From Tricharina praecox (taxonomy: Eukaryota), in the NCBI RefSeq assembly GCF_024521635.1, contig NW_026250412.1, positions 682,001 through 746,000 of the forward strand: DNA of 64,000 nucleotides, written 5' to 3'. A program made the position numbers and the translations under genes. The notes beneath the pieces were generated by a model that saw nothing but the letters and a program-made list of their open reading frames with translations, did no database searches and was not told the DNA's origin. Positions 13,173-16,631 of the stretch are shown here, piece after piece (the first letter of the stretch is position 1; every line of letters starts with the position of its first letter).

Positions 13173-14344
13173 ATGGCCGGACGGAGCCCGGCTTTTCAGG
13201 AGGAAGTCAGGAGGCCTGAAGAGCGGATACCAAAGCTAAATACCGGATGCCGAAGACTGGATACCGAACACCAAAGACTCAGGTGTCCGGGGGTCCGGTG
13301 AAAACACCGTTTTTTTTGGTTCATTCGATCGTGGATTGCGTGCGGCCTACCGACCTATCCATCTACTATATAGTACCAGTAAATAATGGCAGTACACACA
13401 CATTCCGTTTCTATGTCTACTGTCCAACTCAATGAGTCCACTCTCGTCAAGCGGGCCAGATGTGGCTTCCACATGCCCTCCGCCCTGACCATTAAACCTT
13501 GATGAAGACCCAGTTTTTGCTTATGTTTAACCATTAATTACACGACCTAGCACTACTGTAGTAGGTCATAGCGATATACTCTACACATACAGGTTCAGAC
13601 CCATCGATCGCACGGTACAGCCGAGTGACACTCTATGCCTCCCCCCCATTTCGGCCTCCGCATCTCGGCGTCATTTCGGCGAGGCGGTCCTCGGGATGGC
13701 GCTCGGGAGGATTTCCGGCCCGCACACACGCACGCTCGCTTCCACCTCCGAGTTTCCCAACCCACCCCATCGCAGCGTGCACACTGCACACTGCAGCAAA
13801 ACCTGCGTCCGTGTTGATCCTGCAAATCTGAAATCTGGAGTGGGTATGATTCCAAATCTGGAGTACCGTATGTACAATTCCAAATCTGGAGTACAATTCC
13901 AAATCCGGAGGAAATGGAGTATATCCGCATTATTTCCGATTCCCTGTATGATAGTATGGGGCCCGGGGGTGTGTGTGCGTGTGTGCGTGTGTGCGTGTGG
14001 GTGGAAGATGATGGCAGGTGGCGGTCGGTGGGTGATCGATTTGCAATACAGATGTCGTCATCCCCCATGGCACATCCCCCGTCCCCCTCCCCGCGCGCTC
14101 CCCTCGCACGCCGGGGTTCTCCGCCATAGCACCGCACCGTCCACCACCGCAGAAATAAACCAAAACAAAGACACACGCACGCAAACCCGCCGAAATCCGA
14201 GCCTCCGAAACCGAAAGCATAAATACCCCCCCCCCCCACACACACACGAAGGAATTGTCGCTGCTTGCTCATCGACAAATTTCCTCGTCTCAACCGATAC
14301 TCACCATAGCTTCTCTACTCCGCCGCTTCTTCGGAACTTCAACC

Positions 14345-14829
14345 ATGGTCTCTGCCGCTGCGAAAACGAAGGTTCAGAAGATTATCGACGAGAACCCGGT
14401 TGGTACGTATTACGTTGGATGAGGGGATGGGGGGATGAGAGGTGGGGATGGGGGGTGTGATGCGTAAGATTCGTTGCTGATGGGATGGAACCGTGAATAG
14501 CCGTCTTCTCCAAATCCCACTGCCCCTACTGCCGCGCCTCAAAGACTACGCTCTCGGAGCTGGGCGCAAAGTTTTACGTCCTTGAGCTCGACCAGATCGG
14601 TACGTTCTAGCTACGTGCTGTTTCTTTCAACGTCCCCGCCGCGAGGGAATGCTAATCCCGTGTATGAATAGATGATGGTGCCGAGCTCCAGGAGGCTCTT
14701 GCCGAGTTGACGGGACAACGCACCGTGCCAAACATCTTCATCGACAAGCAGCACATCGGCGGAAACTCGGATCTGCAGGCTAAGAAGAGCCAGCTGCCCC
14801 AGTTGCTCAAGGCTGCTGGAGCTGCTTAG
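14345..14829 (+). CDS. grx1: Dithiol glutaredoxin (CPYC), 3 exons: 14345-14402, 14501-14599, 14672-14829
   Basis: Spliced translation MVSAAAKTKVQKIIDENPVAVFSKSHCPYCRASK...LELDQIDDGAELQEALAELTGQRTVPNIFIDKQHIGGNSDLQA...AAGAA*. GTACGT...TAG introns with CTGAT/CTAAT branch sites. Not listed in the ORF track because of the introns. Confidence 0.95.
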
Positions 14830-15000
14830 ACGAAGAGGCTGAGGAGGAGGAGGAATGGGGGGTTTTCACGCTGTTTTCTTAGAGTAAACTTGCGTGTGCT
14901 CAATGAATAAAGATGGTTCTTTGATGTAATGCGATTTCTCCGGTATGAATGTACACGTATAAACAGCCAGCCAGCCCACAATCCCCAATTTTGTTTTACT

Positions 15001-16176
15001 TTACACCCCCAACGTCGCCGCGGGCCTCGACGCCAGCGCCAACACGCCCTCGATGATGCTCTTTCTTGCCGGCTCACTGGCGGGCTTCGCACCTGCCAGG
15101 TAACAGAGCCACAGGGCCTTAGCCACGCGCGGATCCCTAATGCTACCCAAATTCTGCACCGTCTGCTCCTCACCCTTCCCGCCGAGCTTACCATCGTTGC
15201 GACCCGTCGGATCGTAGTACACACCGAACACGCCGGCCGCGTCCCGTGCCAGCAGCAGCGTCTTCTGCTTGGGCACGCTCTTCTTGAACGCGCCGCCAAA
15301 CAGCGCCTTGAACTCTGCCAGCGCGGCCGTGAAGGCGTCGTCGTCGTACGATTCATTCTTGGTCGAGCGCGCTTGGATCCCGCGGACCCAGCCGTCGCGG
15401 AGGTGCTGGAAGTCTGCGCCGCATTAGCCCCTCTTCCCCCTCCCTACTGCGACGGCGACAGAGAACAAACCAGTATTCCTCGTCGGCACGATCCTGAACA
15501 AGCTCCGGAACTGCGCGCCGCCGGCGAGCACCTCCTCCCACAGCTTCTCGCCCTCGACGGGATCAAGCAGGCGCTTCCTGAGCTCCTCCTTCTCCAGCGC
15601 GGTGATCGAGCTCGCTGTCGGATCAACCCTGCGCACGAGCGCAGTCTGCACCGCCGCCAGGTCATCAACATGCACGTAGAAACCGACGACATACACCTGG
15701 ATGCTGAGGAAGCTGACAGTCCTGATCCCGAGGCCGAGCAGCGCGTACTCGGCATTGTCGGGGGCAGTGACGCGGGTGGGGAACGGCGGGACGCTGGTAG
15801 TGCCCGAGTCGACGAGGCCGTCGCCGAGCTGCAGGGCGACGGGTGTGGCAGGATCGAAGCCGGCGGTTGCTGGTGCAGGCGCTTCGGTCTTGTGGGCGGG
15901 CTCGTTGGCGATCAGGTAGACTAGCGCGACGAGGCCGACGCCGCCCGCGCCGAGCATCCAGCGGCGCCGCTGCATGGAGATTTCCTCCTGCGAGTGTTTT
16001 CCGGCCGCCGAGGACGGCGAGGTGGGGCGTTTCGGTGGCGGCCGCGGGCGCACGGCAGTCGGTGGCTTGGGGAGGTTGTAGAGGCCGTGCAGGTCCTGGC
16101 GGACGGTGGCGTAGCCGCGGCGGCAGAGCGCCTGGCGTGGGCAGAGCTGGAGGAGCGCGCGGGTCGTGGTGGCCAT
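15001..16176 (-). CDS. AIM18: Aim18/Aim46-like mitochondrial chalcone-isomerase-fold protein; intron 15470-15414
   Basis: Arg-rich presequence MATTTRALLQLCPRQALCRRGYA, one TM segment, motifs LLGLGIRTVSFLSIQVYVVGFY, RIVPTRNTDFQHLRDGWVRGI and LWLCYLAGAKPASEPARKSI. Confidence 0.88.
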
Positions 16177-16631
16177 TTTGCGGATTGTGTGGTGGTTGTT
16201 TGTTGGGTGTTTATTGTTGTTTGGCGGGGAGGTGCGTTTCCGGAGGTGAAGGTGGCGTGGTATGGGGGGCTTGGCATAGGTAATACACATACTAATGGCA
16301 TGCAGGAATATAAATATCACTCGGCGAATCGTCAGCAGAGCTCTGGGGGACCATTCGTATTCCCATTTCAACCGACAAACCGTGCCAGAATCACAAAAAC
16401 CTATTGCCTACAGAGAACCACACCGACAACAATGAACCCATGTAAAAATGAAAAACACCCCCGTGTGCAAGTAAGTAGCTGTAGATCTTATGCTATTACC
16501 GGGAACGGTGACTGAAAGAACCCCAACCAACCCAGTCGCCGGAGAAGGAATTCCAAAGTCAAAGTAAACGGGAAAAAAAGAACAAGCAAAATCGTCTATG
16601 ATCGCATCCTCTCCCTCCCTCTTTCTCTCTC

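Follow-up and report, generated by a model that had tools for sequence, protein, structure and literature searches.

A conserved in-frame leader behind an AUA codon in the CPYC glutaredoxin gene of Tricharina praecox, a putative mitochondrial presequence shared across Pezizomycotina

Is the glutaredoxin (Grx) of the Pezizomycete Tricharina praecox only the cytosolic enzyme that its annotated start codon implies, or does the same gene also supply mitochondria by translation that begins upstream, at a codon other than AUG? The question is raised by a gene in a stretch of 64,000 nucleotides of T. praecox DNA (contig NW_026250412.1, positions 682,001 to 746,000 of the forward strand), here called the window, in which positions are counted from the first letter. 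A preliminary description of this DNA had pointed to an ATA at 14306-14308 in the context ACC ATA G (14303-14309), in frame with and 13 codons before the ATG at 14345-14347, and had proposed that it starts a mitochondrial isoform of the enzyme. All of these coordinates were right, the spacing between the two starts (14345-14306) being 39 nucleotides. The comparison of orthologous sequences showed that, across Pezizomycotina, the leader is conserved at the protein level and a start codon is kept at the homologous site. It supported the proposed interpretation, in which the use of the AUA as a start in T. praecox and mitochondrial import of the product are the predicted parts.

The gene was identified with the exon-3 translation (14674-14826) as query against a protein collection; of 302 candidates, 218 reached E <= 0.001, and the best 120 were listed. 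The top match, P0002, is a protein of 104 residues named 'putative glutaredoxin Grx1 [Tricharina praecox]'; it was 100% identical to exon 3, and exons 1 and 2 also matched it. The glutaredoxin domain PF00462.31 is precomputed on P0002, and the protein contains the motifs SKSHCPYC, RTVPNIFI and HIGGNSD. CPYC is the active site of class I dithiol Grx, and TVP and GG.SD are glutathione-binding motifs. Residues C27, P28, C30, V71, P72, G82, G83 and D86 are invariant in alignment A1. The three-exon gene at 14345-14829 is a Grx1/Grx2-type (class I) dithiol CPYC glutaredoxin of T. praecox, a species placed in the Pezizomycetes by a taxonomy check. The public model P0002 starts with MVSAAAK and thus begins at the ATG at 14345.

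Upstream of this ATG the frame is open. The translation of 14159-14402 runs from a TAA at 14156-14158 to the end of exon 1 (...SSQPILTIASLLRRFFGTSTMVSAAAKTKVQKIIDENPV / ...QPILTIASLLRRFFGTSTMVSAAAKTKVQKIIDENPV) with no Met before the main one. The leader itself, IASLLRRFFGTST, has two Arg and no Asp or Glu, in agreement with the acid-free composition described earlier, and the earlier statement that no in-frame ATG lies between the TATA-like CATAAATA and the ATA can be extended to every frame and as far as 14345. Taken alone, an ATA followed by 13 open codons is within chance expectation, because 13 stop-free codons and one near-cognate codon are common in 5' leaders. The leader rises above chance because it is conserved across orthologues. 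When the upstream 81-residue frame with exon 1 was used as a protein query (P0001), two candidates were returned and none scored, the match being too short for significance in that database.

Orthologous DNA was collected by a search with alignment A1 on metagenome contigs, in which 580 stretches matched, 439 were confirmed and 80 loci were kept. Exon 1 of the Pezizomycotina type was located in 59 of the 80 loci; the other 21, with different or unresolved N-termini, were set aside. The core of the leader was found in frame upstream of the main ATG in 56 of the 59 (56 of 80 overall). As for the three exceptions, the contig of L006 begins inside the leader, and L007 and L043 are without it. The L007 sequence (1198-1500) is intron-less and 67% identical, with a different upstream frame in place of a FLRRFF-type leader, and may represent a lineage outside Pezizomycotina or a paralogue.

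Identical context and leader DNA was collapsed, which left 45 distinct leaders with the window included. They are of the type [I/M]-x-F-L-R-R-F-F-S/T/P-rich. The preliminary description had suggested a search of orthologues for an LLRRFF-type leader begun by AUG or by a near-cognate codon, and both classes were found: the homologous codon is ATG in 13 of the 45 and a near-cognate in 32 (ATT 20, ATA 9, ACG 2, CTG 1). The CTG case (L052) is an uncertain assignment, with only CTG candidates and no A at -3, and the two ACG variants read GCCACC ACG A (L016) and CCCAAC ACG T (L053).

Around the ATA, the window reads CTC ACC ATA GCT TCT CTA CTC CGC CGC TTC TTC GGA. Of its nearest relatives, L078 (91% protein identity) reads CAC AAA ATA GCT TCA CTA CTC CGC CGC TTC TTC GGA, and L066 reads TCC ACC ATA GCT TCG CTA CTC CGC CGC TTC TTC GGG. 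In the DNA alignment of the five Pezizomycete-like sequences (window, L078, L066, L021 and L023), the invariant island begins at CAnnATAGCTTC and the sequence upstream is unconserved. Other near-cognate codons in frame in the window, namely an ATA at 14297 in the context CAACCG ATA C and TTG, CTG and ATT codons farther upstream, were considered as starts and rejected, as they are not conserved in L078 and L066, where the homologous ATA is the only such codon.

Several properties of the 45 leaders are those of a coding sequence. The mean column entropy in well-occupied columns was 1.28, 0.78 and 1.46 for codon positions 1, 2 and 3, so that third positions vary most. The invariant Arg is encoded by CGC (31), CGT (6), CGA (6) and CGG (1), and the next Arg by AGA (12), CGA (8) and CGC (8). 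Over the RRFFxx block the ratio of nonsynonymous to synonymous differences (pN/pS) was 0.47 in frame compared with 0.68 and 1.84 in the shifted frames, with pS near saturation, and five sequences have stops in the +2 frame. Eight leader lengths occur (14-22 codons counting both starts), and every one of them is in frame. The upstream limit of the coding region is marked by an in-frame TAG two codons before the ATT in L032 and by a TGA two codons before the ATG in L048, and no upstream in-frame ATG was present in 29 of the 32 distinct non-AUG leaders. Five intron-less contigs resembling complementary DNA (L002, L003, L004, L005 and L008) include the ATT and at least 70 nucleotides upstream of it.

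The sequence context of the starts was also informative. Among the 32 non-AUG starts, A is found at -3 in 31 and C at -4 in all, and the consensus is CCCACC. In every one of the 13 AUG starts, +4 is T and -3 a pyrimidine (T 9, C 4), and at the main AUG position -3 is a purine in 44 of 45. A weak codon in a strong context, or a strong codon in a weak context, is the pattern that would be expected of a system holding upstream initiation low. Out-of-frame ATG codons between the start region and the main AUG were absent from 57 of 57 rows, and such absence is a requirement of leaky scanning.

Proteins in the public collection gave a second view of the same site. When 34 of the best 120 listed proteins were inspected, eight were seen to carry this type of leader immediately ahead of the conserved Met. 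It is Met-started in P0081 (Truncatella angustata), P0098 and P0116 (Pseudomassariella vexata) and is reached from a Met farther upstream in P0033 (Salinomyces) and in P0101 and P0036 (Penicillium angulare). P0105 (Bipolaris zeicola, ...AKISFLRHFF...) and P0011 (Phyllosticta capitalensis, TIQFLRSFF...) are partial models without Met. In most of the other long proteins among the 34, the extra length is intron read-through, and the models from Pezizomycetes begin at the main Met. Residues 1-40 of P0081, used as a second query, gave 21 proteins, 11 of which were inspected. Seven of the 11 (two from Nemania, one each from Anthostomella, Apiospora, Xylaria and a Xylariomycetidae species, and one further protein) have an M[SN][FL][LIV]R[RKQ][FL]F leader, either Met-initiated or behind a longer N-terminus, and two are without a leader. 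P0075, a second Truncatella angustata model, has the same MSFLRRFF leader as P0081, and the model of the Leotiomycete Oculimacula yallundae reads through ...LPTISFLRKFF....

Annotated proteins of Amphisphaeriales and Xylariales have Met at the homologous site, with MSFLRRFF in Truncatella angustata and Apiospora arundinis. The leader-bearing models span Dothideomycetes, Eurotiomycetes, Leotiomycetes and Sordariomycetes (class checked for four species). It was also seen that public models of the orthologue disagree at the N-terminus (P0011, P0105, P0036, P0033, P0129 and others), being partial with a start within the leader or shortly ahead of it, begun at a far-upstream ATG or extended by intron read-through. 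This disagreement is what would be expected if annotators were faced with a conserved open leader that lacks an ATG.

Whether the ATA lies within the messenger RNA (mRNA) was examined with RNA contigs from four public runs (X1-X4) placed on 13900-15100, the repeats at 13900-14007 and 14218-14255 being left out. The RNA label of X1 and X2 is a guess; their contigs are nevertheless spliced, and that of X2 is also polyadenylated. Both introns are joined (14402 to 14501; 14599 to 14672) in all four runs. In the preliminary description a transcription start downstream of 14306 counted against the proposal; the contigs of all four runs begin upstream of it. The 5' ends are at 14256 in X2 (with 31 further unplaced letters, at the skipped repeat), 14274 in X4 and 14294 in X3, and adapter directly precedes 14282 and 14294 in X1 and X3 (fragment ends). 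Because the contig 5' ends (14256-14294) are all upstream of 14306, the ATA is within at least part of the transcripts, and the contigs set a minimum for how far upstream the 5' end lies. The alternative of a separate upstream exon with an AUG, spliced to the leader, was rejected for the window: no joint was found upstream of 14345, and the X2 contig is colinear from 14256.

The leader was then compared with the features of mitochondrial presequences. With Met as its first residue, the extended N-terminus carries a net charge of +3 over residues 1-20, and acidic residues appear only from position 28 on; for the AUG form the net charge is +1 and the first acidic residue is at position 15. The 45 leaders have net charges of 0 to +3, with Asp or Glu in only five, and their tails are rich in Ser, Thr, Pro and Ala. 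The pattern hydrophobic-x-x-hydrophobic-hydrophobic is the one reported for presequence recognition by Tom20. A core of this pattern with a basic residue at x is found in 42 of the 45 leaders (LRRFF, IRSFF, FRRLF and others), and it is LRRFF in the window. None of the leaders examined has a hydrophobic stretch of the length that a signal peptide or membrane anchor would need. In Diaporthe amygdali, a Sordariomycete according to a taxonomy check, the accessible part of a preprint (bioRxiv 10.64898/2026.09.28.755239) describes four Grx proteins of which only DaGrxA is of the CPYC type, and its GFP fusion was exclusively mitochondrial, colocalising with MitoTracker. The basic, acid-poor leader with its Tom20-like core, together with the analogy to yeast GRX2 and to the Diaporthe CPYC Grx, suggests a mitochondrial destination.

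We propose the following mechanism. The mRNA would start upstream of 14306, and most scanning ribosomes would pass the weak AUA and initiate at the main AUG at 14345, which is strong (A at -3, G at +4), to give the 104-residue cytosolic enzyme. A minority would initiate at the AUA with initiator methionyl-tRNA (Met-tRNAi), aided by the A at -3 and the G at +4, and add the 13 residues (M)ASLLRRFFGTST. This extension is basic, acid-free and Ser/Thr-rich, has the LRRFF core and runs on into the Lys-rich N-terminus of the enzyme, and could act as a short mitochondrial presequence, so that one gene would provide Grx for both the cytosol and mitochondria. That the leader is translated in this lineage is, in our judgement, very likely. 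The combined statement, that the leader is used from the AUA and yields a mitochondrial Grx isoform, we hold to be probable on the strength of the sequence comparison, and for use and mitochondrial targeting in T. praecox itself our confidence is lower than for translation in the lineage.

Several observations weigh against the proposed mechanism. AUA is among the weaker near-cognate codons. The RNA contigs give no defined transcription start or cap site, and with a major cap site at 14294 only 12 nucleotides would precede the AUA, which would then be poorly recognised. The RNA fold of 14256-14402 was no better than that of shuffled sequences (z-score 0.00; 99 of 200 shuffles fold at least as well), and structure-assisted initiation at the AUA, which was also considered, is unsupported at this z-score. 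With 13 codons compared with 15-21 in the others, the window leader is the shortest of the 45 and is short for a presequence, and its maximum hydrophobic moment of 0.80 (8-residue window) was reached by 549 of 5000 shuffles. Three of the non-AUG sequences (L042, L053 and L005, a longer copy of L004) have an in-frame ATG 58-68 codons before the near-cognate codon. The search for the leader core was confined to the frame of the main open reading frame, and the 45 leaders, which come from metagenome contigs, are related by descent, so that their counts are not independent events. The orthology of DaGrxA is presumed, and so is its AUG-type leader, on the basis of the Sordariomycete-like loci in the latter case.

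Some of these observations would suit other explanations. The leader might be translated from AUA or AUU and yet serve as something other than a matrix presequence, for example as an outer membrane or intermembrane space tether, as a signal for another compartment or in stability tuning. Its very short length and its non-significant amphipathic moment agree with this, and according to the accessible part of PMC4294668, Grx is also present in the yeast intermembrane space, at limiting levels. We regard a non-matrix role as unlikely: the basic, hydroxylated, acid-poor composition and the LRRFF-type core of 42 of the 45 leaders fit a presequence recognised by Tom20, the leaders are without a run that could form a signal peptide or membrane anchor, and the one Sordariomycete CPYC Grx described in the preprint colocalises with MitoTracker. 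It could also be argued that the T. praecox leader is a decaying relic kept by descent, with negligible initiation at the AUA and a cytosolic enzyme as the only product. It is after all the shortest leader with a weak start codon, and no more than 12-24 nucleotides separate the fragment ends at 14282 and 14294 from the AUA. Such decay is hard to reconcile with the AUA, the A at -3, the G at +4 and the IASLLRRFFG codons, all identical or synonymous in L078 and L066 while the upstream sequence has diverged; no stop, frameshift or out-of-frame ATG has accumulated, and longer transcripts from at least 14256 exist. A relic is in our view quite improbable.

The conserved block could, finally, be an untranslated element of the 5' untranslated region (UTR), such as an RNA- or protein-binding site or promoter-proximal DNA, in which the open frame is incidental. 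Conservation around CAnnATAGCTTC at the nucleotide level is what such an element would give. The variation among the leaders is, however, concentrated at third codon positions and includes CGN/AGA switches of Arg, pN/pS is lowest in the main frame, and the eight lengths are all in frame. The same site holds an ATG in 13 of the 45 leaders and is annotated as coding sequence in named species, and no stable RNA structure was found (z-score 0.00). We consider an untranslated element highly improbable. A translated leader read from the AUA as a mitochondrial presequence is the explanation that we prefer.

One known system of this kind is Saccharomyces cerevisiae GRX2, whose extension is reportedly longer than the T. 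praecox leader. The dual-start precedent, on which the preliminary description had drawn, was confirmed in the accessible part of PMC7286987: GRX2 is a CPYC dithiol Grx with one mRNA and two in-frame starts. Initiation at the upstream start adds a mitochondrial targeting sequence, and initiation at the downstream start yields the cytosolic form. Both of its starts are AUG, whereas the proposed upstream start in T. praecox is AUA (AUU in most relatives) and would add only 13 residues. The three further systems below are likewise described from the accessible parts of the cited papers. In Cryptococcus, the aminoacyl-tRNA synthetases ArgRS and LeuRS have a near-cognate start (cccaccAUU in ArgRS) that gives a predicted mitochondrial targeting extension before a strong AUG (Wallace et al. 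2020, PMC7049704). The consensus CCCACC ATT of the Grx leaders is the same as that of Cryptococcus ArgRS. These enzymes belong to another gene family and another phylum, and they have support from ribosome occupancy, whereas the present case has that of sequence comparison. In the same subphylum, Pezizomycotina cpc-1 has conserved AUU, ACG and CUG starts in near-optimal context with a conserved A at -3 (Ivanov et al. 2017, PMC5487733). Its extension of about 180 residues is under purifying selection, but it bypasses control by an upstream open reading frame and does not target an organelle. Fungal 6-phosphogluconate dehydrogenase is a housekeeping enzyme with non-AUG initiation and a cryptic targeting signal in its annotated 5' UTR (PMC7214817); that signal is a peroxisomal targeting signal of type 2 (PTS2) and not a mitochondrial presequence.

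Near-cognate extensions that add a mitochondrial presequence, and the dual-start GRX2 of yeast, are thus already known. What appears to be new here is a non-AUG leader on a glutaredoxin, with unusually clear comparative support and a trade-off between codon and context. No report of a non-AUG glutaredoxin leader was found in the literature by titles and abstract openings. The main texts of PMC5487733, PMC7049704 and PMC6582344 do not contain the word 'glutaredoxin' (nor, in the last of these, the study of cryptic mitochondrial N-terminal extensions in yeast by Monteuuis et al. 2019, the word 'GRX'), and the supplementary candidate lists of these papers might already name the gene. Two papers considered as precedents were set aside: PMC3484665 concerns a monothiol Grx, and PMC11285713 concerns Bol3.

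By analogy with Diaporthe (four Grx, one CPYC), filamentous ascomycetes seem to have a single CPYC Grx gene. In most public models its translation begins at the main AUG, and the enzyme described is a purely cytosolic one. Should the leader be used, filamentous ascomycetes would depend for mitochondrial deglutathionylation on a proteoform missed by annotation. The reciprocal pairing of codon strength and Kozak context offers a clean experiment of nature on the setting of isoform ratios by leaky scanning, and would also account for the inconsistent N-terminal models of this gene. More tentatively, the leader may be an ancient translational rheostat, at least as old as the ancestor of Pezizomycotina, that splits the sole dithiol Grx between cytosol and mitochondria by a deliberately weak start. 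A near-cognate AUU or AUA in optimal context (CCCACC) and an AUG in poor context (pyrimidine at -3) would be freely exchanged in evolution, with the mitochondrial share kept low and stress-responsive. Stress-responsiveness would be expected because the use of near-cognate codons rises when start-codon stringency falls under stress. This broader idea is a possibility that we find doubtful. The features of the gene are collected in Table 1.

Table 1. Features of the T. praecox Grx gene and its upstream region (window positions)
Feature	Position	Strand	Remarks
TATA-like CATAAATA	14218..14225	+	read from sequence; putative promoter function
Poly-C/(CA)n run	14226-14247		directly 3' of the TATA-like box, before the first RNA contig ends
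mRNA 5' leader upstream of the near-cognate start	14256..14305	+	without ATG in any frame
Initiation context CTCACC ATA G	14300..14309	+	A at -3, G at +4; AUA 14306-14308
N-terminal extension (I/M)ASLLRRFFGTST, 13 codons	14306..14344	+	proposed mitochondrial presequence, core LRRFF
Exon 1 from the main AUG	14345..14402	+	context TCAACC ATG G; start of the cytosolic isoform MVSAAAKTKVQKIIDENPV
Intron 1, 98 nucleotides, GT..AG	14403..14500	+	joint in contigs of X1, X2, X3, X4
Exon 2	14501..14599	+	CPYC active site inside; sequence and RNA contigs
Intron 2, 72 nucleotides, GT..AG	14600..14671	+	joint in contigs of X1, X2, X3, X4
Exon 3	14672..14829	+	TAG stop 14827-14829
3' UTR	14830..14929	+	poly(A) site near 14929: loose end of X2 contig is an A run, then adapter

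Other observations were made around the gene. Upstream of the promoter region, a (GT/GTGC)n microsatellite is located at 13966-14010. On 14086-14217, upstream of the TATA-like box, an X1 contig of 151 nucleotides was placed at a depth of 415 compared with about 10^5 over the gene; it may come from weak transcription upstream, from carried-over DNA or from an RNA of its own. On the minus strand, a convergent neighbour gene occupies 14831-16407 of the window, and an X1 minus-strand contig of 1311 nucleotides covers 14831-15100. Since the Grx mRNA ends at about 14929, the 3' ends of the two genes appear to overlap by up to about 100 nucleotides. The minus-strand frames at 15001-15423 and 15424-16407 include the N-terminus MATTTRALLQLCPRQALCRRGYATV, which itself resembles a mitochondrial presequence. 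Run X4 is a wood-decay metatranscriptome and holds, besides a contig identical to the window, contigs of the Grx1 of a related species; these were placed on 14501-14537 and 14757-14798 with 3-4 differing letters, and their loose ends encode ...QNIIEENPV.

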